This document shows positions 8,226 through 41,675 of a DNA stretch of 59,205 nucleotides, piece after piece. The stretch is from positions 1 to 59,205 of the forward strand of contig CAYGAW010000053.1 of NCBI GenBank assembly GCA_964347945.1. The letters are read 5' to 3'. The position numbers and the translations under genes are program-made. The first letter of the stretch is position 1. Each line of letters opens with the position of its first letter. Under the pieces are notes generated by a model. It had not been told where the DNA came from and did not search any database. It saw nothing but the letters and a program-made list of their open reading frames with translations. Source of the DNA: an uncultured Anaerolineales bacterium (GTDB lineage Bacteria; Chloroflexota; Anaerolineae; UBA7937; B3-Chlor).

Positions 8226-10478
8226 GTGGAAACCAAGGAAAGGATCTTGATAATCGAAGACAGCGAAGACGTCGTCACCTTTCTGACCGAGAGCATCCTC
8301 CACCCCAACGGCTACGACACCTTAGTGTCCCGCGATGGCAAGGACGGTCTGCGCCGAGCACTGGGAGACCGACCCGATCTGATCCTCCTGGACCTGAATC
8401 TGCCGCGTATGACCGGTATGGAGATCCTCAAAGTCCTCCACAAGAGGGGGACTCACACACCGGTGATCTTGATGACGTTCTATGGGTCGGAGGAGATCGC
8501 TGTGGAGGCCTTCCGCCTCGGTGTGAAGAACTACATAGTCAAGCCATTCAAGCCCCGGGAGGTTATCGACGCCGTCGAGGATGCTCTGGCTGAGGGCCGC
8601 CTGCGCCAGGAAAAGGAACGGCTCACCGAAGAGCTGATGCGCACCAACAAGCAGCTGGAGCACCGAGTCCACGAACTGACCTTGCTGTACGAGATCACGC
8701 AGTCCATGGCGAAGCTCATGGACTTGGAGACCTTGCTCTCCCGAATGGTTGAGGCGTCGGTTTTTCTGAGCAAAGCAGATGAGGGTATGCTCTTCCTCCT
8801 AGATACGGAAACGGACGAGCTATACCTCAGAGCTGCCAAGGGAGTGGGCGAGAAATACGCCCGGGGATTGCGGCTGAGGGCCGAAGACAGCCTCATTGGC
8901 AAGGTAGTGCGCAGCGGCGAACCGTTACGTGTAGCAAGCGCCGAGGATCGTCTGCAGCTAAAGGTCAAGACCGGCTACCTCGTCAACTCGCTCCTCTATG
9001 TTCCCCTGAAGTTACGAAACGAGATCAGGGGTGTGCTTGGGGTATCCAACCGGGTCAGCGACAAGGCATTCTCTTCCGCTGATCAACATCGCCTCAGCAT
9101 CCTCGCTGACCACGCCGTCATCGCGTTGGAGAACGCTCGCCTCTATGAAGCGGAGCAGCGCCGCGCGCTCCAGATGGCGATGACCAGTCACCTCAGTCAA
9201 AGGATCAGCTCCATCCTCGACATTGAAGCTCTCCTCTCCGAGGTAGTGGAACTCCTCAAGCAGAGTTTCGGCTTCTACTACGTACAAATCCTGCTACGGC
9301 ATGAGCCAGGCCAACTCGTCATGCGTGAGGGGACCGGCGAGACAGGACAGAGCATCAAGGACAGCTTGTACCAGGTGGCCATTGATGACCAAACCGTTGT
9401 CGGCTGGGCAGCCAATCACGGTGAGACCCTGTGTGTGAACAGTGTGCAGCAGGAGCCACGATTTCGCACCCATGAACTGTTGCCAGCCACGATGGCGGAA
9501 CTGGCCGTTCCTCTCAGGTCAGGGAACGAACTGATCGGCGTTCTGGATATCCTCAGCGATCAAGAGGGGGCCTTCGATTTCGACGATGAGACCATACTGC
9601 AAATGCTGGGGGACCAGATAGCTGTTGCCATACAGAATGCGTCTTCGTACCAACGGCTGAGAAAACAGGCAGAGCTACTCAATACCTTGACCCATATCCC
9701 GACTACCACAGCCTCTGCCGAGATTGTGGATGAGATAGTCAAGAAACTGATGGAAGGCATCAACGGCATCCTGCCTGTGGAAGCTGGCTCCTTGCTTCTC
9801 ATAGACGATGCCGCTAAGGAGTTGGAGTTCAAGATAACCCTACACGGACGCAGAGAGAAGTTGGCACAATTCCGGCTGGAGCTGGGACAGGGCATCGCTG
9901 GCTGGGTGGCCGAGCACGGAGAGCCACTGCTGGTGGACGACGTGACGGAGGATCCTCGCTACTATCCCCAGATAGCCCAAGCCATCGGCTTCGAGGCTCG
10001 ATCGATCCTCTGCGTCCCCCTCAAGACGAAGCAGCGAGTCATCGGCGTCATCGAGCTGATTAATAGGCTAGGCAGAGGTGCTGACACTCGCTTCACTCAG
10101 GATGATCTGGAGATTCTCACGGCGCTCGCCGCCCCGATAGCCTCGGCGCTCGACAGTGCAAGACTCCAGAAGACAGGACAAGGGGAAATCACTCACGCGC
10201 AGAGAGAGACCCTTGCATCGATGTCCCAATATCTCTATAAGCCCCTGAAGGCCTTTGCTACAAACACGTACGCGCTCAAAGTCGCCATCGAGAGAGGAAC
10301 CGTCGCTTGTACCGATGACACGCTGGAGCAACTGCTCACCTCCATGGAACGTAGAATAGCGCAAATGGCCTCGTTCGCTCAGCTCCTAAGTACGTTGTCC
10401 TCCCCTGACAGTAGCCCCCAGGACTGGGTCAGTATCGAGCAAACGCTGGAAAGGTTCAGAGCCAAGTACGATTCCTAG
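8226..10478 (+). CDS. response-regulator receiver protein with three GAF domains and a C-terminal His-less HisKA-like helical domain
   Basis: REC motifs IIEDSED, LILLDLNLP, PVILMT, VKPFK. Three GAF-like blocks, each ending in an ...ARLYE/SSYQRL/ARLQ helix. C-terminus SMSQYLYKPLKAF replaces the SHELRTPL H-box. No HATPase domain. Confidence 0.85.
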   Translation: METKERILIIEDSEDVVTFLTESILHPNGYDTLVSRDGKDGLRRALGDRPDLILLDLNLPRMTGMEILKVLHKRGTHTPVILMTFYGSEEIAVEAFRLGVKNYIVKPFKPREVIDAVEDALAEGRLRQEKERLTEELMRTNKQLEHRVHELTLLYEITQSMAKLMDLETLLSRMVEASVFLSKADEGMLFLLDTETDELYLRAAKGVGEKYARGLRLRAEDSLIGKVVRSGEPLRVASAEDRLQLKVKTGYLVNSLLYVPLKLRNEIRGVLGVSNRVSDKAFSSADQHRLSILADHAVIALENARLYEAEQRRALQMAMTSHLSQRISSILDIEALLSEVVELLKQSFGFYYVQILLRHEPGQLVMREGTGETGQSIKDSLYQVAIDDQTVVGWAANHGETLCVNSVQQEPRFRTHELLPATMAELAVPLRSGNELIGVLDILSDQEGAFDFDDETILQMLGDQIAVAIQNASSYQRLRKQAELLNTLTHIPTTTASAEIVDEIVKKLMEGINGILPVEAGSLLLIDDAAKELEFKITLHGRREKLAQFRLELGQGIAGWVAEHGEPLLVDDVTEDPRYYPQIAQAIGFEARSILCVPLKTKQRVIGVIELINRLGRGADTRFTQDDLEILTALAAPIASALDSARLQKTGQGEITHAQRETLASMSQYLYKPLKAFATNTYALKVAIERGTVACTDDTLEQLLTSMERRIAQMASFAQLLSTLSSPDSSPQDWVSIEQTLERFRAKYDS

Positions 10479-10785: not shown

Positions 10786-11739
10786 ATGCATAATGCGATA
10801 ACGGACGTACCAGGTGTCAAGGTAGGACACTATACCGACCTCCAAGCTGCCACGGGCTGCACCGTGCTCCTTTTCGAGGAAGGAGCCGTGGGCGGGGTGG
10901 AAGTCCGCGGCGCGGCCCCTGGAACACGGGAGACGGACCTACTTCGCCCCCTGCGTCTTGTCCAGCGTGCACATGCTGTCCTGCTGGCTGGCGGTTCGGC
11001 TTTTGGACTGGACGCCGCCACCGGAGTGATGCGCTATCTGGAGGAGAGGAACATCGGCTTCGACACCAGGGTTGTGAAAGTGCCCATCGTACCGGCCGCC
11101 GCTCTATTCGATCTTGATCTCGGCGACCCATCGGTTAGGCCAAATTCTGACGGCGGCTACCAGGCGTGTCTTGCCGCTGTCGCTAGTCCGCCGCCCGAGG
11201 GCAATGTGGGCGCAGGGACGGGCGCCACCGTGGGGAAATTGCTGGGTCTTTCCCAGGCCATGAAAGGAGGGCTCGGAACTGCCAGCCAGGAGATGGGAGA
11301 GGGACTTGTGGTGGGAGCTCTGGTGGCGGTCAACTGCTTGGGCGATGTTGTGGATCCCAAGACAGGCCAGATACTGGCCGGGGCACGCCACCCCGAGGCC
11401 GGGGGCTTCCTCAACTCCTCAGAGGCAATAAAGCAGTGGTCTGCACACACCACATCGCCCTTTGCTAACACCACCATCGGTGTCGTGGCCACTAACGCCC
11501 GTCTGAGCAAGGAGGAGACCAACAAGCTTGCTCAACTCGCCTTGGATGGTTACAGTCACGCCATCCGCCCCACCACGATGTACGATGGCGACGCACTCTT
11601 CGCCTTCTCCGCAGGTGACAAGGTGGCCGACCTCTCCGCTATCGGCGCTGCAGGCTCCGAGGCGGTGGCCGAGGCCATAGTGCGCGCCATCAAGACGGCC
11701 AAGTCCCTACACGGCATTCCCGCTCACAGAGACATCTAG
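10786..11739 (+). CDS. P1/S58 family peptidase (DmpA-like L-aminopeptidase/D-esterase)
   Basis: NAITDVPGVKVGHYTD N-terminus and the GTTIGVVATNARLSKEE-type nucleophile region. Confidence 0.85.
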   Translation: MHNAITDVPGVKVGHYTDLQAATGCTVLLFEEGAVGGVEVRGAAPGTRETDLLRPLRLVQRAHAVLLAGGSAFGLDAATGVMRYLEERNIGFDTRVVKVPIVPAAALFDLDLGDPSVRPNSDGGYQACLAAVASPPPEGNVGAGTGATVGKLLGLSQAMKGGLGTASQEMGEGLVVGALVAVNCLGDVVDPKTGQILAGARHPEAGGFLNSSEAIKQWSAHTTSPFANTTIGVVATNARLSKEETNKLAQLALDGYSHAIRPTTMYDGDALFAFSAGDKVADLSAIGAAGSEAVAEAIVRAIKTAKSLHGIPAHRDI

Positions 11740-11887: not shown

Positions 11888-13123
11888 GTGGAGACCAGAG
11901 AAAGAATCCTCATCATCGAGGACAGCCAGGACATCATCGACTTCCTCACTGACACCATCCTCAGCCCACGTGGCTACGAGCCTGTGGTGGCGACCAGCGG
12001 CCAGGAGGGTCTAGGCCGAGCTGTGGACGATCCACCGCATCTAATAATCCTCGACTTGAATCTGCCCCATATGACCGGCATGGAGGTTCTCCGTGGGCTG
12101 CACGAGACAGTTCCCACCATTCCCGTACTGCTGATGATCTTCTCGGGTTCTGAGGAAATCGCGGTAGAGGCCTTCCGTCTCGGTGTCAAGAACTATGTGC
12201 TGAAGCCTCTCAAGCCCAATGAGGTCCTCCAGGCGATCGACCACGCCCTGCGCGAGACCAGACTGCGGCGCGAGAAGGAATTGCTGACTGAGGAGTTGAT
12301 GCGGACCAACAAGCAGCTGGACCAGCGCGTTCGCGAACTGACCCTGCTGTACGAGATAACGCAGGCTATGACCAGCTCGCTTGACTTGGAGACGCTGCTC
12401 TCCCGAGTCGTCGAGGCTTCCGTATTCCTGACCAAAGCCGATGAAGGAATGCTGTTCCTCATAGACGAGCTAACAGGTGACCTATACCTCCGAGCCGCTA
12501 AGGGTGTCGGAGACAAACGTGCGTCCATGCTCCTGCTGCCGGCGCGCGATAGCCTCATTGGACAGGTGGCCAAAACGGGAGAACCGCTCCGGATCGCTAG
12601 CACTGATCCTCGCCTGGATTTCACGGTTAAGACAGGCTACATGGTCAATTCCCTTCTTTATGTGCCTTTGAAGCTCCGTGGAGTCACCAAGGGTGTACTG
12701 GCGGTCTCGAACCGCATAAGCGATCGAGCGTTCACCCGCACCGATCAGAGCCGCATGGATCTGCTGGCCGATCACGCCGTGATAGCCCTTGAAACCGCCA
12801 AACTCTACCAAACGACGAGAGAACAGATGTCCAACACCTTCGGAGATACGCTGAATGCCCTTTCCCAATACGCCTACGAGCCCTTGAAGGCCTTTGCTGC
12901 GGACACATACGCACTGAAGGCCAATGCAGAAAAGGGAATCATCTTCTGCGTCGATGACACACTGAACCAACTGCTCAACTCCATGGAGCGCAGGATAGAG
13001 CAAATGGCCTCCCTAACAGAAATCCTCAGTGGACTGGCCTCCCTGGATAGCACCGCCGAGGACTGGAAAGACCTCGAGCACAGGTTCGAGAACCTCAAGG
13101 CGAGATACCCCTCCTATCAGTGA
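11888..13123 (+). CDS. response-regulator receiver protein with one GAF domain and a C-terminal His-less HisKA-like domain (paralog of 8226..10478)
   Basis: Collinear with the longer paralog in REC, linker (EELMRTNKQL...ELTLLYEITQ), GAF1 and the C-terminal block (ALSQYAYEPLKAFAADTYALK...NSMERRIEQMAS). Confidence 0.85.
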   Translation: METRERILIIEDSQDIIDFLTDTILSPRGYEPVVATSGQEGLGRAVDDPPHLIILDLNLPHMTGMEVLRGLHETVPTIPVLLMIFSGSEEIAVEAFRLGVKNYVLKPLKPNEVLQAIDHALRETRLRREKELLTEELMRTNKQLDQRVRELTLLYEITQAMTSSLDLETLLSRVVEASVFLTKADEGMLFLIDELTGDLYLRAAKGVGDKRASMLLLPARDSLIGQVAKTGEPLRIASTDPRLDFTVKTGYMVNSLLYVPLKLRGVTKGVLAVSNRISDRAFTRTDQSRMDLLADHAVIALETAKLYQTTREQMSNTFGDTLNALSQYAYEPLKAFAADTYALKANAEKGIIFCVDDTLNQLLNSMERRIEQMASLTEILSGLASLDSTAEDWKDLEHRFENLKARYPSYQ

Positions 13124-13136
13124 GCGCTCTTCGGAG

Positions 13137-13925
13137 ATGGTCAAACAATCTGCCTCCAACATCCTGGCTATCGACATAGGCAACACCAACACCGTCTTGG
13201 GTGTGTACAACGGCGACGAACTGATCGCCTATTGGCGAATGGCCACCGCCTTGCACAGGATGGCTGATGAGAACGCCGTTCTACTGGACTCCTTGTTCCG
13301 TCACGCAGGCCTTTCGTTCTCCGACATCCACGACGGTATTCTCTCCTGTGTTGTGCCTCCGCTCCTGCCCGTCTTTCAGGAGATGTGCCAAAGATACATG
13401 GACTTCACCCCTCTGGTAATCGAGCCAGGCACGAAGACGGGGATGAGGATTCTCTACGACAACCCTCAGGAGGTGGGAGCCGACCGTATCGTCAACGCCG
13501 TGGCAGCGAAGCAATTGTACGGAACGCCTCTTATCGTCATCGACTTCGGCACCGCCACCACTTTTGACGCCATCTCCGCTGAAGGCGATTACCTAGGCGG
13601 GGCGATCGCCCCAGGAGTCAACGTTGCCGCCGAAGCCCTCGCTGCGCGGGCGGCCAAGCTGCCCCACATTGAGTTGGCCGTGCCCCCACGGGCCATCGGC
13701 AGAAACACCATCGCCAGCATGCAGTCTGGCATTATGTACGGGTATGTCAGCCTAGTCGAAGGAATGGTGGCCCGCTTGAAGGAGGAACTGGTCGGTGACG
13801 CCCATGTCGTGGCCACCGGCGGCCTGGCCCCGATCATAGCCCGACACACCCCCGTCATAGACGACGTGAACCAGAACCTTACCTTGCAAGGACTGAGGCT
13901 CCTGTACAAGCTCAATCGGTCCTAA
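13137..13925 (+). CDS. coaX: type III pantothenate kinase
   Basis: LAIDIGNTNTVLGVY, GADRIVNAVAA and VIDFGTATTFD motifs. Start moved to ATG 13137 (MVKQSASN); the upstream part of the ORF is Arg/Ser-rich junk. Confidence 0.9.
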   Translation: MVKQSASNILAIDIGNTNTVLGVYNGDELIAYWRMATALHRMADENAVLLDSLFRHAGLSFSDIHDGILSCVVPPLLPVFQEMCQRYMDFTPLVIEPGTKTGMRILYDNPQEVGADRIVNAVAAKQLYGTPLIVIDFGTATTFDAISAEGDYLGGAIAPGVNVAAEALAARAAKLPHIELAVPPRAIGRNTIASMQSGIMYGYVSLVEGMVARLKEELVGDAHVVATGGLAPIIARHTPVIDDVNQNLTLQGLRLLYKLNRS

Positions 13926-14042: not shown

Positions 14043-14056
14043 GGAACATATGTTCT
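14043..14056. promoter_or_regulatory. LexA (Cheo-type) box GGAACATATGTTCT
   Basis: Perfect GAAC-N4-GTTC palindrome in the coaX / 14198-gene spacer. Same core as the box at recA. Confidence 0.5.
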
Positions 14057-14197: not shown

Positions 14198-14959
14198 ATG
14201 CGGCAGATGTGGTCGGCGAACTATCAGTTCCGTACCTTCTCCGTGGGTGACCAGGAAGTACCAGCAGTGATGCTGGGAACGTCTCCCTTCATCGGTGCAG
14301 GTCAATTCGGCAAGAAGGCCGAGTTCTACTACAACCGATTCTTCCTTCAGCCAGAGAACATCATCGACATCGTAGTGCGCGCCGTCGAGTTGGGAGTGAA
14401 CGCCGTACAGGTCATAGCCTACCACCAGGTGCTAGAAGCTGTCCATGAGGCGGCGAAGAGGACGCGCACCGAGTTGTTTCTCATGGGAACGGTGGGCCTG
14501 GGCAGCATCGAGCGGGAGATTCGGATGGTGCTCGACGTCGGTGCTCAAGGCGTGTTAGTCCACGGAAGTCTAGCTGACAGGGACATGCCCTTCGCCTGCC
14601 AGCACCTGGCAAAGCTCAGAGAGCAAGGACTGGTCACTGGCATCGCCACCCACAGACCAGGGATGACCATCCCCCGTGTCGAGGAGATGGAAGAGGTAGC
14701 GTTGATCCTCTCTCCCTTCAACAAACTTGGCAGATTCATGGACCCTTCAGTGGACTCTACCTTGCAGGCTATCGAAAGCACCTCCAAGCCAATCATCGCT
14801 ATGAAGCCGCTGGCTGCCGGCAGGTTGTCCCCGCAAGAAGGTCTGGCTTATCTCCCGGGCAAGCTCGCGGGCGTCGCTGTGGGGATCGCGTCAGTGAAGG
14901 AGGCGGAGGAGACCTTTGCGGTGGCGAAGAGGTACTTCCCCCCATCCCCCACAGCGTAG
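14198..14959 (+). CDS. hypothetical protein, alternating beta/alpha pattern suggestive of a TIM-barrel-like enzyme
   Basis: ORF track 14036..14959. Start moved to MRQMWSANYQ (ATG 14198 or 14207) because the upstream part is Arg-rich and overlaps the promoter. No family motif recognised. Confidence 0.6.
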   Translation: MRQMWSANYQFRTFSVGDQEVPAVMLGTSPFIGAGQFGKKAEFYYNRFFLQPENIIDIVVRAVELGVNAVQVIAYHQVLEAVHEAAKRTRTELFLMGTVGLGSIEREIRMVLDVGAQGVLVHGSLADRDMPFACQHLAKLREQGLVTGIATHRPGMTIPRVEEMEEVALILSPFNKLGRFMDPSVDSTLQAIESTSKPIIAMKPLAAGRLSPQEGLAYLPGKLAGVAVGIASVKEAEETFAVAKRYFPPSPTA

Positions 14960-24676: not shown

Positions 24677-26206
24677 CTACTTGGCGTAGTCTACGGCCCT
24701 CTTCTCGCGTATGACGGTGACCTTGATCTGCCCCGGATACTCAAGATTCTCCTCCACCTTGCGAGCCACATCCTTCGATAGGCGCAGGATGCCCAGGTCG
24801 TCAATCTCGTCTGGCCTGACCACGATCCTTATCTCGCGACCCGCCTGGATGGCGTAGCATTCGCTGATCCCCTGGAAGGAACTGGCCACCTCCTCCAAAG
24901 CCTTGATGCGCCTGAAATAGGTCTCCAGGCTCTCGCGGCGCGCTCCAGGGCGCCCTCCCGATATGGCATCCGCTGCCGCCACCAGCACCGCCTCGACGCT
25001 TTGGGCTTCCTCTTCCTGGTGGTGAGCGGCGACCGCATTGACCAGCCCCGCCGACTTGCCGTGGCGCCTGGCGATATCAGCGCCGATCAAAGCGTGGGGC
25101 CCCTCCACCTCGTGATCGACCGCCTTGCCGATGTCATGCAACAAGCCTCCCTCCTTGGCCAGCCGGACATCAGCGCCAACCTCGGCAGCCATCATCCCCG
25201 CGAGGTGCGCTGTCTGTATGGAGTGTTCCAACTGGTTCTGGCCATAGCTGGTCCTGTACCTCAACCTTCCCAGCAGCTTGACCAGTTCAGGGTGCATCCC
25301 TGTCACACCCACGTCGAAGACCGCTCGCTCCCCCTCCTCCTGGATAATAGCTTCCACCTCTCGCTTGGATTTCGACACCACCTCCTCGATCCGCCCCGGA
25401 TGGATGCGCCCGTCCATGATGAGTTTGGTGAGCGACAAACGGGCGATTTCACGCCTTACTGGATCGAAACTGGAGATGGTCACTGCTTCGGGCGTGTCAT
25501 CAACGATCAGATCCACACCTGCGGCGTTCTCCAGAGCTCTGATGTTGCGACCCCCACGTCCGATAATGCGACCCTTCAACTCATCGCTAGGCAAATCCAC
25601 CGTCGAGACACTGACCTCTGCCACTTCCTCGGAGGCATAGCGCTGAATGGCCTCGCTGATGACCTTCCGAGCCTTTCGATCCGCCGTCTCCCTCGCCTCC
25701 TGTTCCACCTCGCGTATTACGCGGGCCATCTCCTGACGGCTCTCCTCCTCGACGGTTCGCAAAAGCAGGTCCGTGGCCTCCTCTCTGCTCAGGGAGGAGA
25801 TGGCTTCCAACTCCTCAGTGCGCCTTTGTTTGAGTTCCTCCAGCTCCGCCTCGGTCTGCTTCAGCCTAGTCTCTTGAGCAGCAGCTTTCCTTTCCCGCTC
25901 CTCGAGGGGTTCCAGACGACGCTCCAGGCTCTCCTGCCTCTTCTGCAGGCGCTCCTCCTGATTGCGCACGCGCCTGCGCCTCTGCTTCAGTTCTTCCTCT
26001 CCCTCTCGCAGTATGTTGAGCGACTCATCCTTGGCCTCCAGCAGCATCTCCTTCTGCTTCGTCTCCGCATCGGCCACGATCTGCTCCGCCTCTGCTTGAG
26101 CCTCTTTCACTTTGGACGTAGCCAAGTACTGCCTAACCACATAGCCCACCGCGAATCCGCCGAAGGCTGCGGCTAGTAATCCCAATGCGACCATAATAGG
26201 TTCCAT
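24677..26206 (-). CDS. rny: ribonuclease Y
   Basis: N-terminal TM, long Glu/Lys/Arg coiled coil, KH ([15 protein letters not shown]) and HD (LLHDIGK) domains. Confidence 0.95.
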
Positions 26207-26247: not shown

Positions 26248-26889
26248 CTAACTGTCCTCCCCGCCTTCCTCAGCACTCTGCTGAAGTAGACGCGATACCG
26301 TTTCCCTTACCACCTCGTAACCGAAACCTCGTCGCCGAAGGAAGCCGTACATCTTTTGACGAAAAACGCGATCATCCAGATGATCATACCTCTGGGCCTG
26401 ACTCACGGCAGCCCGATAAGCACTCTCCTCCTCATCAATCTCACTCAAGACCTCTGCTATCAGTTCGTCGTCGATTCCCTTTTGCCGCAATTCGTGCCGC
26501 AAGGCGCGGCGACCCCGGGGTTTGAAGGTCTCTCGGTTCTCCACCCAGTACCGGGCGAACGCCCCGTCGTCCAGCAGCCCTGCCGCGCTCAGCCGCTCCA
26601 GAACCGCCTCGCCGACCTCCGTGGAGACCTGCTTTTTCCTCAGGTAACGCCTCAACTCAGCACTGCTACGTGGGCGATAGGCCAGGTAATCAAGAGCCCT
26701 ATCGTACGCCTTCTGGACAGCGTCCCGTGACTGCAGCTCTCGGATTTCCTCCTCAGAGAGGATATCCCCGCGCTTCAGCGACGCTGCTACGCCCATCGCT
26801 AGGCTGAAACCGTACTCGCCGTCAAGATAGACGTTGACTCGATCCATTTTCCTCTTCTGGACCTTGATCTCGGTGATCTCGCCTGCCAC
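26248..26889 (-). CDS. recX: recombination regulator RecX
   Basis: RecX-type three-repeat helical protein (ALDYLAYRPRSSAELRRYLRKK..., GFLRRRGF). Sits between recA and rny. Confidence 0.85.
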   Translation of the reverse strand: MAGEITEIKVQKRKMDRVNVYLDGEYGFSLAMGVAASLKRGDILSEEEIRELQSRDAVQKAYDRALDYLAYRPRSSAELRRYLRKKQVSTEVGEAVLERLSAAGLLDDGAFARYWVENRETFKPRGRRALRHELRQKGIDDELIAEVLSEIDEEESAYRAAVSQAQRYDHLDDRVFRQKMYGFLRRRGFGYEVVRETVSRLLQQSAEEGGEDS

Positions 26890-27255: not shown

Positions 27256-28356
27256 CTAACCCTCTGCTTCTCCCGACGGTTCCTCCGAACCCGCCGTCGA
27301 CTGACGATGCTCCTTTTCGCTTGCTTCGCGAAGTTCGCTGACAGGCCAACGCACGGGAGGAAGGCCGGCCCGTTGGCGAACTTTGTCACTGATCTCCTGT
27401 GCTACCGAGGGATTCTCCCGCAGGAAGTCCTTGGCGTTCTCCCGGCCCTGTCCTAGCCTCGTGTCGCCATAGGAGAAGTAGGCTCCCCTCTTGTCCACGA
27501 GCCCCATGTCCACGCCGACGTCAATGAGATCACCCTCTCGAGAGATACCTTCGTCGTACATGATGTCAAACTCCGCCGACTTGAAGGGAGGTGCCACCTT
27601 ATTCTTCTTCACCCAAACCTTCGTCCGGTTGCCGATCACCTCGGTTCCAGCCTTGATGGACTGCACCCGTCGAATATCCAGACGCACCGAAGAATAGAAC
27701 TTCAAGGCACGTCCCCCGGGTGTCGTCTCTGGGCTGCCAAAGAGAACTCCCACCTTCATTCGCAGCTGGTTGGTGAAGATCACGGCGGTCTTGGAACGCT
27801 TGATGGCCCCCGTCAGCTTCCGCAGGGCCTGGGACATCAGCCGCGCCTGCAACGCCACGTGCTGGTCACCCATCTCCCCTTCGATCTCAGCCCTGGGCAC
27901 CAGTGCCGCCACTGAGTCCACAACCACCACGTCTATCGCTCCGCTACGCACGAGAGCCTCGGTGATCTCCAGTGCCTGCTCTGCGGTGTCCGGTTGGGAG
28001 ATGAGCAACTCCTCGATGTCCACCCCACACTTGGCGGCGTAGATAGGATCGAGGACGTGTTCCACATCTATGAAGGCCGCAATGCCCCCATCACGCTGGG
28101 CCTCAGCAATGATATGTTGGCAAAGGGTAGTCTTGCCTGAACCCTCGGGGCCGAATATCTCGGCCACCCTCCCGCGAGGTATGCCTCCCACGCCCAGTGC
28201 GATGTCCAGGCCCATAGACCCTGTGGGTATGACCTCCACATCCATACCCGGGGCCTCTCCCAGTTTCATCACAGCTCCGTCGCCATACCGCTTCGTTAGC
28301 TGTGAGAGGGTAATCTCTAGCGCCTTCTCGCGACCCTCTTTCTCCGCCATTGACAC
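27256..28356 (-). CDS. recA: recombinase RecA
   Basis: Walker [21 protein letters not shown], and L1/L2 regions. Has a C-terminal acidic/Ser-rich extension. Confidence 0.98.
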
Positions 28357-28419
28357 TCCCTCCGGGTTCGCCCCTAGTAATTGAGTTTACTCCAAACCAT
28401 AACAAAAGGCAAACGCGTT

Positions 28420-28433
28420 AGAACTTATGTTCT
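28420..28433. promoter_or_regulatory. LexA (Cheo-type) SOS box AGAACTTATGTTCT at recA
   Basis: Perfect GAAC-N4-GTTC abutting the downstream edge of the recA -10 element. Confidence 0.7.
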
Positions 28434-28462
28434 ATTATACCACAAAAGGCCGCAACCTGCAA
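28434..28462 (-). promoter_or_regulatory. recA promoter TTGCAG-17-TGgTATAAT (extended -10)
   Basis: Minus strand TTGCAG (28457..28462), 17-nt spacer ending in TGG, TATAAT (28434..28439). Confidence 0.5.
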
Positions 28463-28493
28463 ACTGTGATATACTCTAAGCCGAAACAGAACG

Positions 28494-30911
28494 ATGCACG
28501 AGATTGAACGGTTCATTCCTGACAAGCCGAACGAAGAGCAAATCCCCCTGGAGCGTTATCTGCAACCTCTACCGCGCAACGTGGTAGCAGCGTATGTCGT
28601 CGAGTGCACCAATCCGGGCAATCTCGTCATGGACCCTTTCCCGCAAAGGGGTACGCTGTTGGTCGAAGCGGCTGCCAGCGGAAGGAGGGGCATCGCCGCC
28701 AGCTTCAACCCGGTCCGCACCCTGCTCGTGCACGGTATCCTGACCCTCCCCTCGCCACACGAGATCGATGCCGCGACCGTGCGACTGGGCGACAGTCTGA
28801 AAAGAGGTATTCCGCTGCGGGAGCACATCAACCAGCTATACGCCAGCTCCTGTCACCACTGTGCGCGTCCCCTCGTCGTCGATTATTTCCTCTGGCATGG
28901 AGAAGACGACAGGCCAGTGGAGAAGTACTATCACTGCACGCACTGCGACGCCGAAGGCCGATTCCCTGTCGAGGACACTGACCTCACTGTGCTGGACAGC
29001 GTGGAGAAGCAAGGAGTCCACTACTGGTATCTTCTGGAGAGGCTGGCTCAGCCTCATGAGCCAGAACGGAAGCTGGCCGAGGAACTTCTGAACCTCTACA
29101 CTCCGCGGAATCTCTACGCCTTGACGGACCTCTCTATGAAGATAGAGACCCTCTTTGTCGATTCACCGCTGCAGAATGCGCTGCAGTTGATCCTAGTGCA
29201 GTGCTTCGACACCTGCAGCAAGCTCGGCGCCTCCCCCCTGCCCAGACCCACGGTGCTCCACCTGCGTCCGCCGACCAGATTCATGGAGCGAAACGTATGG
29301 CATGCCTTCGAAGAGGCGTACCGGTTGGTACGCCTCCTATCGCCGTCCGGGCCAATGGCTGTCACCACCGACACCGAGAGCCTCGTGGGCGAAGCGGAGG
29401 CGGAGGTAAGCGTGATCAACGAACCACTCCACAGAGTGGCCGCCAGGCTGCCACCCTCCAGCGTGAGCTTGGTCGTTGCCGCACCTCCTCCCTACTATCG
29501 CCCCTTCTGGACGCTCTCCTACTTATGGAGCGGCTGGCTGTGGGGTAGAGAAAAGGCAACACTCCTGAAACCCTTGCTGAGGCGGAAGATGATGGGCTGG
29601 TCGTGGTACCGAAGAAGTCTGGGTGCGGCCCTGAAGACTCTCCACCGCCCCCTTCGACCCCAGGGTAGCATGATCTTCATTCTCGAGCGGGCTAGTCTGA
29701 CCCACATCAATAACGTGATACTGGCCGCCGTGGGGGCGGCATTCAAGCTACGGAGGATCTTGTACCAGCCAGAAGATGTGCATCCCCCCGAGGAACCCAT
29801 GCAGGGTGTGGACGGAGCGTATCGCCTCACCTTTACCAGAGATGATGGACCCGGCCAGGATCTGGACGACCTGTCGCCTGGTGCCGTGGCTCTGGCCCTG
29901 CAGGAGGCAGCACTGAGGGCAGCCCGGGAGTTGCTCAGGGAGCGAGGCGAGGCACTCCACTTCGGTTGGCTCCACAGCGCCATCTACCAGCGATGGAGCC
30001 GGGACGGTTTGCTGACACAAGCGCTCGCCCTCGGCGAGCGTGTCTCCATGCCTGATTTCCTCGACGAGCAGATGGAGAGCGCTCTACAGGAGGCGTTGGC
30101 AAGGGAGGTGTTGGAACTCCTGCCTAAGGATGCAGACGAAGCGAGCGGTGCTGTTCAATGGTGGATGAAGGCAAAGGGTTATCCGCCACGCCCCTTGGCG
30201 GATCGGTTGGAGCGAGCGGTCTATCAGATTCTCACGGACGGACGTGACTGCAGCCACGAAGACCTCTGCGACGACATCTATTCTCGCTTTCCGGGTATCT
30301 TCACCCCTCCGCCTGGCCTCGTCCAAGCCTGCATAGACTCCTATGCACAGCGTGACGATGCCTCGGATAAGTGCAATCTCCGACCAGAGGAAGAGGCGAC
30401 GAGTCTCGCCGAAGAGAGGGTGGAAGGCCTGAAGTTGCTGATGCAGGTGGGACAGCGCCTTGGCTATCAGGTGTCCCTGTCCAAGCGACGTGTGCCGCAG
30501 CTCTCCACTGGCACAGACCCCATCTCGCGAGTTCGTTTGCCCAGGGGTTTGGATGTCAGTTGGGACAGCGAATGGGCGGGCCTCCACACCTTTGCCTTCA
30601 AGCAAACGACCAGGTTCGGCGACATCCTCAGTCACGGAGGCCAGGATCACAGCGAGTCGCACCGGTACATCCTCATCGCCGACCGTCGGCTGGATCTGCT
30701 GCGGTTCAGAATCGAGAGTGAGTTCCTGTTGCGAAGAGCGCTGAACGAAGGGGAGTGGCAGTTCATCAAGCTGAAGCACCTCAGGGACCTGGGCACCAAG
30801 AAGCACCTCGATCGCCCCGATTTGGACCAGATCATAGGGCTGGAACCCCTCATCGAGCGGCCGGAAGCGCAGCTGCCCCTGTTCCCGCCCTCAGAGTTCG
30901 AAAGCGATTGA
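28494..30911 (+). CDS. large hypothetical protein: amino-methyltransferase-like fold with degenerate motifs I and IV, inserted CxxC...CxxC Zn-ribbon, and an unknown ~450-aa C-terminal region
   Basis: LVMDPFPQRGTLLVEAAASGRRGIAASFNP (motif I-like), CHHCARP...CTHCDAEG, SLVVAAPPPYY (motif IV-like, no D/N/S). Confidence refers to the ORF being real, not to any function. Confidence 0.7.
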   Translation: MHEIERFIPDKPNEEQIPLERYLQPLPRNVVAAYVVECTNPGNLVMDPFPQRGTLLVEAAASGRRGIAASFNPVRTLLVHGILTLPSPHEIDAATVRLGDSLKRGIPLREHINQLYASSCHHCARPLVVDYFLWHGEDDRPVEKYYHCTHCDAEGRFPVEDTDLTVLDSVEKQGVHYWYLLERLAQPHEPERKLAEELLNLYTPRNLYALTDLSMKIETLFVDSPLQNALQLILVQCFDTCSKLGASPLPRPTVLHLRPPTRFMERNVWHAFEEAYRLVRLLSPSGPMAVTTDTESLVGEAEAEVSVINEPLHRVAARLPPSSVSLVVAAPPPYYRPFWTLSYLWSGWLWGREKATLLKPLLRRKMMGWSWYRRSLGAALKTLHRPLRPQGSMIFILERASLTHINNVILAAVGAAFKLRRILYQPEDVHPPEEPMQGVDGAYRLTFTRDDGPGQDLDDLSPGAVALALQEAALRAARELLRERGEALHFGWLHSAIYQRWSRDGLLTQALALGERVSMPDFLDEQMESALQEALAREVLELLPKDADEASGAVQWWMKAKGYPPRPLADRLERAVYQILTDGRDCSHEDLCDDIYSRFPGIFTPPPGLVQACIDSYAQRDDASDKCNLRPEEEATSLAEERVEGLKLLMQVGQRLGYQVSLSKRRVPQLSTGTDPISRVRLPRGLDVSWDSEWAGLHTFAFKQTTRFGDILSHGGQDHSESHRYILIADRRLDLLRFRIESEFLLRRALNEGEWQFIKLKHLRDLGTKKHLDRPDLDQIIGLEPLIERPEAQLPLFPPSEFESD

Positions 30912-30929
30912 AGGCAGCCAGGACGAGGG

Positions 30930-31598
30930 ATGAGGGACAAGGTCATACTGTCGTGGAGCGGTGGAAAAGATGCCGCCCTCGCGTTTCGCGAATTGCAGAG
31001 GAGGGAACAGTACGAGCTAATCGCTCTCCTAACCGTCGTGACCGAGGAGTATGACAGGATCAGCATGCACGGCGTTCCGCGAGTTCTCCTGCACCGGCAG
31101 GCTGATTCCCTTGGCCTTCCCCTGGAAACGATCTCCATTTCGAAGAGCGCCTCCAACGAGGGATACGAACGTGCCATGCGTGAGCTCTTGGAGAAGTACC
31201 TGACCCTCGGCGTCTCCTCCGTCGCTTTCGGAGACATCTTCCTGGAGGACGTTCGGAGCTACAGGGAGCACAATCTGGCCAAGGTCGGCATGAAAGCGGT
31301 GTTTCCGCTGTGGCAGAGGGATACTGGTCCACTCGCGCAGACCTTCATAGACCTGGGCTTCGAAGCGGTCGTCACCTGCGTCGACTCTAGCATGCTCGAT
31401 GGGTCCTTCGCGGGTCGGGATTTCGATGAGCGATTCCTGTCCGATTTGCCTGTTCACGTGGATCCCTGCGGCGAGAATGGAGAGTTCCACACCTTCGTGT
31501 ACGCCGGACCCATCTTCACTGACTCGATACCGCTCGAGAAGGGAGAAGTCGTTCTCAGAGATGACCGCTTCTACTACTGCGATCTGCTTTCCGCATAG
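30930..31598 (+). CDS. PP-loop ATP pyrophosphatase of the DUF71 / MJ0570 / Dph6 (diphthine-ammonia ligase-like) family
   Basis: VILSWSGGKDAALA PP-loop, GDIFLEDVRSYRE, PCGENGEFHTFV. 19 nt downstream of the 805-aa gene. Confidence 0.85.
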   Translation: MRDKVILSWSGGKDAALAFRELQRREQYELIALLTVVTEEYDRISMHGVPRVLLHRQADSLGLPLETISISKSASNEGYERAMRELLEKYLTLGVSSVAFGDIFLEDVRSYREHNLAKVGMKAVFPLWQRDTGPLAQTFIDLGFEAVVTCVDSSMLDGSFAGRDFDERFLSDLPVHVDPCGENGEFHTFVYAGPIFTDSIPLEKGEVVLRDDRFYYCDLLSA

Positions 31599-31776
31599 TG
31601 CTGCCGAGGGCCTTCCGCCTGCGCCCAGCGCTGGTTGAGTAGCTTCGCAGCGAAGCGGAGAAGCGTATCGAAACCAAGCGGCTTCCCACACATAACCGAT
31701 TCCCAACAGCCCCTCGGTCTGGTCCCGATACGGCCCTTCGGGCCTACTCGACCGGCGTCTGACCCGCGCTCGACGC

Positions 31777-31819
31777 AAAAAAAGGGCAGGGTGTCGCCCA
31801 TCGAGCGATCACCCTGCCC
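31777..31819 (-). terminator. intrinsic terminator downstream of the 673-aa exported-protein gene
   Basis: Minus strand GGGCAGGGTG-N16-CACCCTGCCC followed by T7. Confidence 0.65.
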
Positions 31820-40009: not shown

Positions 40010-40957
40010 CTATTGAAAGACATAGGTCGTGCCGACACTGTTGAGTATGAACTGGCCTGGCATCTCCGCGGCAAACTGATTGATCGCTTTCCACCCTGTG
40101 CAATGCATGGGCACGACATACTGCGGGCCTATCTTCTTCATCTCCTCAATGGTTCGCCCAATGATAGGCTCGAATACTGGCCCATTGAGATGGAACCCGC
40201 CCAGAACTGCATGAACCACGTCCGTTCGTGCAACATCCTGGGCGTGTTTGACCGTGTTGATGATCCCGGCGTGGGAACATCCGCCGATAACTACCAACCC
40301 CTTGCCCCTTACCTTCACTGCTACGCCTTGGTCATCGTGGAAAGGATCCACAACCCAGTCCCCATCGATTCTTGCTTCGGCCCAAGGGAACCCTCTCTCA
40401 AAACCCGTTACTCGCTCCACCTCGCCTGTAACCAGCACAAGATCTGAGGCCAATGTAGAAGCCTCCTCGGTCTTGTGAGGGACTGCGCCGGCTTCCTCCA
40501 GGGCTTGCCCGTCTAGCGAGGGCAACGGCGTGGGCTGTCCGGCATAAGGGATGTTGAGACGGCGCTCAAGAAAAGCATCCGGATGGAGGGCCAAGGCTAT
40601 TCCCTCACGGGTCCTTGTCAGAAGCTCTGGCAGACCTCCGAAATGGTCGAAATGACCATGGCTCAGGACTACAGACTCAACCTGGCTCAGGTCCACCTTC
40701 AAGAGATCCACATTGTGGAAGAGACACGTCGCCGATATGCCTGCGTCCATCAGTACTACGTGTTGCTCCGAGTCTGCGTGGACTTTGAGCAGGCACGATA
40801 ATCCGTGTTCCGCTACGGGGGCGCTCGGAGGAGGGGTTCTCAGTCGTTGGACGAGCTCCGTGCTCTGCATCAACAGTAGGTCGGTGTAATTGTCCAGTAG
40901 GATTGTGACTTCCAGTTTGTCTGCTTCCCGCAGATGCACTTCAGCCATGGTGCGCAA
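40010..40957 (-). CDS. MBL-fold metallo-hydrolase
   Basis: VLSHGHFDHFGG (HxHxDH) and the downstream GCSHAG and PMHCTG metal-ligand regions. Confidence 0.85.
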   Translation of the reverse strand: MRTMAEVHLREADKLEVTILLDNYTDLLLMQSTELVQRLRTPPPSAPVAEHGLSCLLKVHADSEQHVVLMDAGISATCLFHNVDLLKVDLSQVESVVLSHGHFDHFGGLPELLTRTREGIALALHPDAFLERRLNIPYAGQPTPLPSLDGQALEEAGAVPHKTEEASTLASDLVLVTGEVERVTGFERGFPWAEARIDGDWVVDPFHDDQGVAVKVRGKGLVVIGGCSHAGIINTVKHAQDVARTDVVHAVLGGFHLNGPVFEPIIGRTIEEMKKIGPQYVVPMHCTGWKAINQFAAEMPGQFILNSVGTTYVFQ

Positions 40958-41675
40958 CCTCCATTCGCATCTCGTAGGCTATCGTTCCTGGCATCCCCGG
41001 CCCGCTCCAGCGACTTGCTAGCCTGCGCGCCCATAGTTTGCCTAGCACGACCTCCGGCTGTTGTAAGTAGCTCTGCACCTCTGCATAGAATCTCCCCATG
41101 TGCATTCCATCCATCAGTGCATGATGTCCTTGCACACTCAAGGGCATCTTCAAGACCCTCCCCTCTTCGAAGAACTTCCCCCAGGCAAAACGTGGCACAG
41201 AATCCGCTGGATGCAATTGGAGCGGATGCATGAAGCTGGTGAACGACACCCAAGGGATCGCAGTCATGTACAACAGATCGTCTCGTCCTTGCTCGTTTCC
41301 TAAGGTCGGATGCTCTTTCATGTAGGCTATCTGCTCGTCCGCTCTGGCTGCAAACAACGAGAAGTCCTCAGTATAGTCAAACGTACAGAAGCTGAACAGA
41401 TCCTCATCCGCCAGAATAGTTCCAGATGGGTGTACGATCTCGTGCTCTACCACCTCTCCTGGCCGAATGCGATACCTAAACTCGGGAATCGCGTTCGCTG
41501 CTCGTGTGAGCACGTAGACGATCCCCACAGTAAACGAAAAGCCACGCTGCTTGACAACTGGATGAAATGTTGTCAGGTCTACATTTACACACATGCTGAA
41601 GTGTGGGTAATCCCAGTCCCTGAACACTCTGAAGTGTTCGCGTCGTGGCCACGTCTGTATGTCGATCCGACGCAT
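40941..41675 (-). CDS. CatA-like (type A chloramphenicol acetyltransferase family) O-acetyltransferase
   Basis: WPRREHFRVFRDWDYPHF N-terminus and catalytic LSVQGHHALMDGMH. About 25 aa of C-terminal extension overlaps the MBL gene start. Confidence 0.85.
   Translation of the reverse strand: MRRIDIQTWPRREHFRVFRDWDYPHFSMCVNVDLTTFHPVVKQRGFSFTVGIVYVLTRAANAIPEFRYRIRPGEVVEHEIVHPSGTILADEDLFSFCTFDYTEDFSLFAARADEQIAYMKEHPTLGNEQGRDDLLYMTAIPWVSFTSFMHPLQLHPADSVPRFAWGKFFEEGRVLKMPLSVQGHHALMDGMHMGRFYAEVQSYLQQPEVVLGKLWARRLASRWSGPGMPGTIAYEMRMEVAHHG

Follow-up and report, generated by a model that had tools for sequence, protein, structure and literature searches.

DNMT1, which works with PCNA, is a replication-coupled methylase of eukaryotes, and NucS/EndoMS is an endonuclease-fold enzyme with a C-terminal clamp motif. 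The canonical motif for binding the beta sliding clamp is Q-phi-x-[L/M][F/L] or Q-phi-x-[L/M]-x-[F/L] (PMC11139829). According to a 2024 review, QLxLF binds the beta-clamp best, and the motifs are often found at a disordered C-terminus with acidic flanks (PMC11139829). Here, we describe an 805-amino-acid (aa) protein whose gene lies beside recA in a 59,205-nucleotide (nt) stretch of DNA from an uncultured Anaerolineales bacterium (contig CAYGAW010000053.1, positions 1 to 59,205). This whole stretch is referred to as the window. Taken together, sequence motifs and structure models suggest a clamp-tethered, catalytically dead, methylase-derived DNA-binding protein, a composite reading to which we assign a probability of roughly 0.5. 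The combination of a putatively dead methylase, a putatively dead endonuclease fold and a predicted clamp-binding tail is previously undescribed, and a literature search found no report of a bacterial methylase-derived clamp partner. The gene and the parts of its product are the following.

28494..30911, plus strand: the 805-aa gene, from the list of open reading frames (ORFs); an unnamed Chloroflexota family member
28494..29858, plus strand: predicted class-I (N4/N6 DNA) methyltransferase fold, residues 1-455 (Foldseek, Pfam, PADLOC)
28623..28712, plus strand: degenerate motif I/II, LVMDPFPQRGT...GIAASFNP, residues 44-73 (HMMER alignment to N4/N6 methylases)
28851..28946, plus strand: zinc ribbon CxxC-N24-CxxC, C120/C123/C148/C151 (155-member alignment)
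29097..29300, plus strand: inserted-domain motifs LYTPRN (202-206) and F-x-ERNVW (265-269), family-specific
29466..29546, plus strand: degenerate motif IV SLVVAAPPPYY (325-335), then the hallmark LSYLWSGWLWG (341-351) (alignment columns)
29952..30389, plus strand: two winged-helix-like domains (tentative), residues ~487-632, in H-H-H-E-E order, twice
30390..30869, plus strand: restriction-endonuclease-like (PD-(D/E)xK-like) alpha/beta domain (tentative), residues ~633-792, with alpha-beta-beta-beta-alpha-beta topology
30870..30884, plus strand: QLPLF, residues 793-797, putative beta-sliding-clamp-binding motif in the disordered tail

The AlphaFold2 model of the 805-aa protein has a predicted local distance difference test score (pLDDT) of 88.6 and a predicted template modelling score (pTM) of 0.87. 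In this model, residues 1-455 form a methyltransferase fold whose beta2 and beta3 are separated by a large insertion. The best Foldseek match in BFVD is a Pandoravirus N4-cytosine DNA methylase (E 1.6e-8). Against the PDB, the whole chain matches TTHA0409 and CcrM with a probability of 1.0 and E-values of only about 3e-3 to 1e-2, and nothing beyond generic Rossmann methylases was returned there, at E of at least 1e-3. A sequence search of the PDB gave methylase matches only at E about 0.2, and a search of NCBIfam with the protein gave no match. PF01555 matches at E 1e-3 with 19.6 bits, which is under its gathering score of 26.7, through the motif-I part of the profile. Across the family, the same part of PF01555 matches 29 of 39 members at E<=0.01, with a best E of 5e-12. 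The PADLOC model PglXI matches 32 of the 39 (best E 2e-12), the stretch concerned being residues 160-242; the MTase_II models match 36 and mad2 matches 3. DUF1156 (PF06634) does not match the 805-aa protein at E<=1, nor any of the 39 members at E<=0.01, and Pfam gave no further match for the 805-aa protein.

The catalytic motifs of this methylase fold are degenerate. Residues 44-73, LVMDPFPQRGTLLVEAAASGRRGIAASFNP, align with the motif-I part of PF01555 and with solved N4/N6 methylases. Motif I reads DPFPQRGT in the window protein, (V/I)LDPFCQxxT in the family consensus, DPF(A/P)Q in some members and DPFG(A/S)SP in an Anaerolineaceae branch. The GxG of motif I is never present in any branch of the family (39 close and 155 diverse members), and the acidic residue of motif II is replaced by N, S or H. 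At the position of motif IV, other clades have APPRLDP, PPHPDP or LPRPNQ. The tetrapeptide (D/N/S)-P-P-(Y/F/W) is kept in no branch, with both its polar and its aromatic positions unconserved. Since motifs I and IV are degenerate across the family, canonical methyl transfer by the 805-aa protein is unlikely.

Other parts of the N-terminal half are strongly conserved. In the 155 diverse members, the four cysteines of the zinc ribbon are 99-100% conserved, and residues 117-158 around them form beta-hairpins in the AlphaFold2 model. Y202, R205, E265, N267 and W269 of the inserted domain are 97-100% conserved. W345, W348 and G351 of the family hallmark LSYLWSGWLxG, which follows the motif IV position, are 94-100% conserved. 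A first-pass annotation of the window had described a zinc-ribbon methylase scaffold of the COG1743 type with degenerate motifs I and IV. The PglXI and Pandoravirus matches bear out the scaffold, and the loss of GxG and (D/N/S)PP(Y/F) extends through the whole family. Both ORFs that it paired, the four-cysteine zinc ribbon, the DUF71 gene and the LexA box are likewise found in the sequence. The CxxC pair is present as described, but its spacing was given as N31, and 24 residues separate C123 from C148.

The C-terminal half, residues 456-805, was modelled separately (pLDDT 86.6). Its two winged-helix-like domains match cullin WHB and ORC in Foldseek with a root-mean-square deviation of about 2.5 A, a probability of about 1.0 and weak E-values. 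The domain that follows gives weak matches to FokI (E 0.034) and then to AF2093, YaeQ and SfsA (E 0.03-0.4). A profile of residues 456-805 found nothing meaningful in the PDB, and both assignments, winged-helix and endonuclease-like, are tentative. The catalytic D...(D/E)xK is not conserved in the endonuclease-like domain; conservation extends to no acidic pair and, on beta3, to neither an acidic residue nor a lysine. Conserved family-wide in this domain are W690, F700, R732, L735, W755 and K759, and D687 is conserved in the close subfamily only.

The protein ends in a tail of 13 residues (793-805) that has a pLDDT below 50 and is predicted to be disordered. This tail, PEAQLPLFPPSEFESD, agrees with the definition of a clamp motif in its sequence, terminal position, disorder and acidic flanks. 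Q793 is 97% conserved in the 155 diverse members. When the strict motif Q[LIVM]x[LM][FL] was scored within the last 16 residues, it was found in 56 of 63 full-length locus members and in 208 of 250 retrieved proteins (83-89%). As a control, the strict motif was present in 2 of 626 other ORFs of the same loci (0.3%). Of the members without the strict motif, most have a close variant of it, for example QLPLW, QLSLI or the six-residue QIPLPL. We regard the QLPLF tail as a putative clamp-binding motif of the canonical type, and the architecture as a whole predicts recruitment to the sliding clamp.

The 805-aa protein belongs to a family that appears large, unnamed and Chloroflexota-specific. It has 192 close homologues of 34-99% identity, all full length and all annotated as 'hypothetical', which agrees with the earlier claim of a family without a described function. 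A profile search found 758 representative clusters (50% identity) at E<=1e-30 and 1860 at E<=1e-10. Homologues reside in hundreds of metagenome-assembled genomes, and all identifiable members are Chloroflexota. A divergent Anaerolineaceae branch accounts for 2237 matches, and every match with a name comes from Anaerolineaceae or Chloroflexota. Full-length conservation extends from 99% down to ~26% identity. In the 155 diverse members, ~55 positions are at least 85% conserved, and these include the zinc ligands as well as the C-terminal motif. The family is at least class-wide, with hundreds of 50%-identity clusters, and ~90% of its length has no Pfam or NCBIfam model. For one 860-aa homologue (P0117, at locus L034), a precomputed annotation lists PF27126, a match that was absent from a local Pfam scan of the family; part of the family may already fall under this entry, which would be a very recent one in Pfam.

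In the window, the 805-aa gene has the following neighbours.

24677..26206, minus strand: rny, RNase Y; after recX on the same strand
26248..26889, minus strand: recX, with RecX domains; 3' of recA on the same strand
27256..28356, minus strand: recA (PF00154, E 1.7e-132)
30930..31598, plus strand: DUF71 PP-loop gene, 222 aa (PF01902 match)

By their profile matches, recA and recX are canonical. The spacer between the divergent recA and 805-aa genes is 137 nt, and the gap between the 805-aa ORF and the 222-aa ORF is 18 nt. The first-pass annotation had taken the methylase scaffold to be hard-wired to the PP-loop enzyme, in a module that might be under LexA control, and had named constant adjacency of the two genes, and constant vicinity of recA or a GAAC-N4-GTTC box, as checks. 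When one genome of each GTDB species was scanned under the guidance of a profile, 165 genomes were found to encode a relative of the 805-aa protein. Gene neighbourhoods were compared in 80 loci with flanks of up to 10 kilobases (kb), all from Chloroflexota, and neighbour counts cover the loci with enough flanking DNA on the relevant side. In the closest clade (at least 57% identity), DUF71 lies downstream in seven of nine loci, and also in an eighth that is cut by a contig end. The spacing there is 18-46 nt in most genomes. Two loci inside this clade, L004 and L008, have no downstream DUF71, and outside it DUF71 follows the family gene in none of 51 loci. The two genes are thus not constantly adjacent, a lack of co-conservation that the first-pass annotation had itself listed as refuting its proposal, and hard-wiring is not supported.

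All-against-all ORF clustering of the 80 loci revealed no universally conserved neighbour, only clade-specific blocks. The block recA-recX-rny-dnaG lies divergently upstream in 18 of 66 loci, so that constant vicinity to recA fails as well. In another clade, of ~43% identity, polA is the divergent neighbour in seven loci (L013-L016, L019, L022 and L073), with the order polA< gene> PALP> (for example L016:1054-3864, minus strand). A role in DNA metabolism would fit these two independent contexts from different clades, which are suggestive and not universal. A third clade has the order gene> DJ-1> cobalamin adenosyltransferase> AP_endonuc_2> (L037, L038, L041, L045, L046, L052 and L053), where the products are a DJ-1/PfpI protein, a PduO-type adenosyltransferase and an AP_endonuc_2 TIM-barrel (for example L041:5429-6103). 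In the Anaerolineaceae branch, the order is NusG-like< gene> <PBP1. There, the gene converges on a class-A penicillin-binding protein of ~1170-1190 aa (L081-L084), and three of these four loci have a 170-aa NusG-like paralogue and a multi-GAF histidine kinase upstream. The defence partners BrxC/PglZ and the mad genes were found in none of 84 loci, where the neighbours are recA, polA, PALP, DJ-1, NusG-like and PBP1. As a separate observation, a B12-related gene lies downstream in two clades, namely DUF71-B12 in the lineage of the window and Cob_adeno_trans in the third clade.

DUF71-B12 is the bacterial subgroup of DUF71, in which ENGEF/YH replaces the EGGE/DxE of Dph6 (PMC3541065). The subgroup has been predicted to act in cobamide salvage, and 75 of 102 members adjoined B12 transporters (de Crecy-Lagard et al. 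2012, PMC3541065). The 222-aa protein matches PF01902 (Diphthami_syn_2) at E 5e-36. It has the PP-loop SWSGGKDA at residues 8-15 (30951-30974) and ENGEFH at residues 182-187 (31473-31490) within PCGENGEFHTF (residues 179-189), which upholds its earlier assignment to DUF71. It scores 80.8 bits against the Dph6 equivalog TIGR03679 of NCBIfam, where the cut-off is 197.3, and EGGE/DxE is absent. PADLOC gave no match for it. By its sequence signature, the protein is of the DUF71-B12 type of COG2102, sharing both PP-loop and ENGEFH with the subgroup predicted for cobamide salvage. Because of the ENGEFH signature, the published functional prediction for the protein is unrelated to nucleic acids, and its proposed part as a nucleic-acid-modifying, adenylating partner is not supported. 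Unlike the published members, the window gene has no B12 genes nearby; a Pfam scan of all sizeable ORFs in the 59-kb window found no B12 transport, cbiB or cobamide genes. For annotation, the neighbour should be labelled DUF71-B12 type and not diphthine-ammonia ligase. A 249-aa antisense ORF at 31029-31778 of the window (minus strand) covers the DUF71 gene almost wholly, and in a genome of 59% guanine plus cytosine, it is most likely spurious.

The spacer between recA and the 805-aa gene holds a LexA box and two promoters.

28420..28433, no strand assigned: LexA box AGAACTTATGTTCT, a perfect GAAC-N4-GTTC, read as the recA operator
28434..28463, minus strand: recA-direction promoter TTTGCA, 18-nt spacer, TGgTATAAT, with 10/12 matches and an extended -10
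28467..28475, plus strand: extended -10 of the 805-aa gene, TGATATACT (TGnTATACT), invariant except for n in 15 aligned intergenic regions

GAAC-N4-GTTC has been described as the LexA operator of the Gram-positive type (PMC3323433). A literature search on SOS in Chloroflexi found nothing specific. The box sits 60 nt 5' of the ATG at 28494. It also abuts the recA -10 directly downstream and covers the predicted +1 of recA transcription. The recA-direction promoter is the sole sigma-70-like site that a promoter scan of the spacer detected. The plus-strand extended -10 ends 18 nt before the ATG of the 805-aa gene, giving a leader of ~12 nt without a Shine-Dalgarno sequence. Alignment of 15 close-clade intergenic regions shows four conserved blocks: the -35 and the -10 of recA, the LexA box and, on the plus strand, TGnTATACT. 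Across these 15 genomes, the recA promoter keeps its GCAA and TATA blocks. The box lies 49-62 nt upstream of the start predicted for the 805-aa gene's promoter and does not overlap its -10, so the earlier description of a plus-strand element clear of the box, in front of a gene without a Shine-Dalgarno sequence, was accurate. The upstream regions of all loci were scanned, and a perfect GAAC-N4-GTTC is present in 16 of the 18 recA-adjacent loci and in none of the non-recA loci with enough upstream sequence.

Because the box abuts the -10 of the conserved recA-direction promoter, it is best read from its position as the operator of recA, belonging to that gene and not to the 805-aa gene. It has the same perfect palindrome and classical repression geometry as Gram-positive-type operators at recA. 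Compared with the usual LexA operators at recA, nothing is unusual here; the box happens to fall between two divergent genes. That the 805-aa gene belongs to the SOS regulon finds no support, as the box is neither independent of recA nor on the gene's own promoter, and the suggested LexA control of an 805-aa operon is not supported either.

The recA and 805-aa promoters are themselves face-to-face and interleaved (28434-28475), with the recA -35 (28458-28463) between the LexA box and the plus-strand TGnTATACT. This layout is conserved in 15 genomes, and promoter competition could couple both genes indirectly. The window contains two GAAC-N4-GTTC sites against 0.72 expected by chance. The other site, GGAACATATGTTCT at 14043-14056, lies between coaX (type III pantothenate kinase, 13029..13925) and a Pfam-less ORF with a probable start near 14198 and an end at 14959; the site may point to an SOS gene that has not been characterised, or be due to chance.

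The region is best read as three independent units, namely recA with its operator, the 805-aa gene and the DUF71-B12 gene, and not one module. The gene order that joins DUF71 and the LexA box to the 805-aa gene is very probably local and incidental. Both recA with its SOS box and the DUF71-B12 gene are ordinary, and the finding as it was first framed is not sustained. A methylase-like protein, an adenylating enzyme and an SOS box do not form a conserved unit, and the module is not worth pursuing.

What the 805-aa protein itself may do can be proposed from its architecture. The ancestors of the family would be N4/N6 DNA methyltransferases with a zinc ribbon, of the PF01555/PglXI (COG1743-like) type. 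From them, the family would have kept the fold, the ribbon and the inserted domain that resembles PglXI, while in every branch motif I would have lost its glycine loop and motif IV its (D/N/S)PP(Y/F) tetrapeptide. In addition, it would have gained two winged helices, a triad-less endonuclease-like fold and the disordered QLPLF tail. The gene would be transcribed from its own conserved extended -10 promoter. Through its tail, the protein would attach to sliding clamps loaded on DNA, either at repair patches or behind replication forks, and the zinc-ribbon, inserted and winged-helix domains would contact DNA. On DNA that has just been replicated or repaired, the protein would then serve as a binding factor, a reader or a scaffold and would not methylate. 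A bolder version of this proposal, which we put forward only tentatively, is that of a lineage-specific, near-ubiquitous Anaerolineae-type accessory of the replisome or of repair. In that version, a domesticated restriction-modification-like fusion, made of a dead N4/N6 methylase with a zinc ribbon, winged helices and a dead endonuclease fold, would ride the beta clamp via QLxLF and read or mark new DNA without methylation, for instance to serve strand discrimination, replication control or repair targeting.

Several observations weigh against a catalytically dead clamp partner. The clamp interaction is predicted from a short linear motif, and such motifs can mislead. The Anaerolineaceae neighbours are not DNA-metabolism genes, and the genomic context lacks a uniform functional signal. 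From these points comes the suggestion that the Q-phi-x-L-F peptide binds a partner other than the clamp, or is structural, for example in a transcription- or cell-envelope-linked factor, as the NusG paralogue and the class-A penicillin-binding protein of the Anaerolineaceae loci would fit. We consider this unlikely, given that the motif fits the canonical definition in every respect listed above, that the rest of the protein consists of domains apparently derived from DNA enzymes, and that 25 loci have recA or polA as the divergent neighbour. The loss of methylase activity, too, is deduced from motifs, and unusual catalysis or retained S-adenosylmethionine binding is possible. The protein could then be an active non-canonical methyltransferase on the clamp, a bacterial analogue of the replication-coupled maintenance methylation by DNMT1 on PCNA. 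The class-I methylase fold is complete in the model, D47-P48 of motif I are 86-90% conserved, the DPFG(A/S)SP of the Anaerolineaceae branch retains the first glycine, and the clamp motif is conserved. However, GxG and (D/N/S)PP(Y/F/W) are kept in no branch. The catalytic polar position is taken by A, S, T, L, N or D and the aromatic one by R, P, H or N, and N, S or H stands for the motif II acid; activity of this kind is quite unlikely. The structural matches of the C-terminal half are also weak, with none at E<1e-3.

The closest clade presents a further difficulty, because its DUF71 pair is fairly stable; the two genes are likely to be co-transcribed there, and a functional link between them, confined to this lineage, is conceivable. 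Its strongest form, a two-gene DNA or RNA modification or repair module of the methylase-like protein and DUF71 under SOS control, draws on the position of the two genes, 18 nt apart on the same strand and next to recA and a LexA box, and on the recurrence of the pair in seven of nine closest-clade loci. It is very improbable in view of the 51 of 51 outside loci, and L004 and L008 inside the clade, that lack a downstream DUF71, the DUF71-B12 signature, and a LexA box that occurs only with recA and outside the gene's own promoter. It is scarcely credible that the gene is left over, in decay and now without function, from a defence system of the restriction-modification or BREX type. Homology to the PglXI and Type II methylase profiles of PADLOC and the degenerate catalytic motifs of both enzyme-like domains would fit such a remnant. 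Full-length conservation from 99% to ~26% identity, in 165 species genomes and 758 clusters, does not, and neither do the ~55 positions conserved to at least 85%, zinc ligands and C-terminal motif among them, nor the housekeeping contexts without BREX or restriction partners. A pseudogene or decaying defence remnant was accordingly rejected on the strength of this conservation.

Should the reading as a clamp-tethered, non-methylating DNA-binding protein be correct, the family would be a new class of clamp client and the first methylase-derived clamp partner described in bacteria. It would also be a case in which restriction-modification enzymes have given rise, through domestication, to DNA-binding pseudoenzymes with a housekeeping role, in a phylum where replication and repair have hardly been explored.

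Elsewhere in the window, two response-regulator-plus-GAF paralogues, at 8226..10478 (750 aa, three GAF domains) and 11888..13123 (411 aa), have near-identical N-termini (VETKERILIIEDS...) and flank a Peptidase_S58 gene at 10786..11739. On the minus strand, a chloramphenicol-acetyltransferase-family gene at 40941..41675 (PF00302, E 2e-38) and a metallo-beta-lactamase-fold gene at 40010..40957 overlap by 17 nt.

Among known systems, the PglXI/COG1743 N6-adenine methyltransferases (PF01555; BREX type 3, MADS mad2) have in common with the 805-aa family the motif-I-first order, the zinc ribbon and the inserted helical region 160-242. Unlike these enzymes, the 805-aa family is without GxG, (D/N/S)PP(Y/F), DUF1156 and BREX or MADS partner genes. 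Its winged helices, endonuclease-like domain and putative clamp-binding tail are extra in comparison with PglXI. TTHA0409 (2zif), CcrM (6pbd) and the Pandoravirus methylase (S4VQ82) share the predicted fold, and the alignment spans HPxxxP / DPFxGSGT / GRxxIGxE. Unlike the 805-aa protein, these three, of 250-490 residues, keep their catalytic motifs intact. We know of no clamp motif in any of them.

For the C-terminal half, the nearest layout is that of the FokI-like Type IIS enzymes, a weak global match of residues 456-805 (E 0.034, 372 aligned columns) that is not significant. The catalytic D...(D/E)xK of FokI is not conserved in the 805-aa family. NucS is absent among the Foldseek matches of residues 456-805, and a NucS-like nuclease identity was ruled out by the lack of both a fold match and catalytic residues. 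With DNMT1-PCNA and NucS/EndoMS, it is the architectural idea that is alike, in which a terminal clamp peptide recruits a protein to new DNA, and no homology is claimed. DNMT1 and NucS/EndoMS are active enzymes, whereas the enzyme-like domains of the 805-aa protein are both without catalytic residues. The described clamp partners (Pol II, Pol IV, UmuC, MutS, Hda and others) are none of them methylase-derived, unlike the 805-aa protein, and its tail has the same Q-phi-x-[L/M]-[F/L], disordered terminus and acidic flanks that are found in Pol II, Pol IV, UmuC, MutS and Hda.

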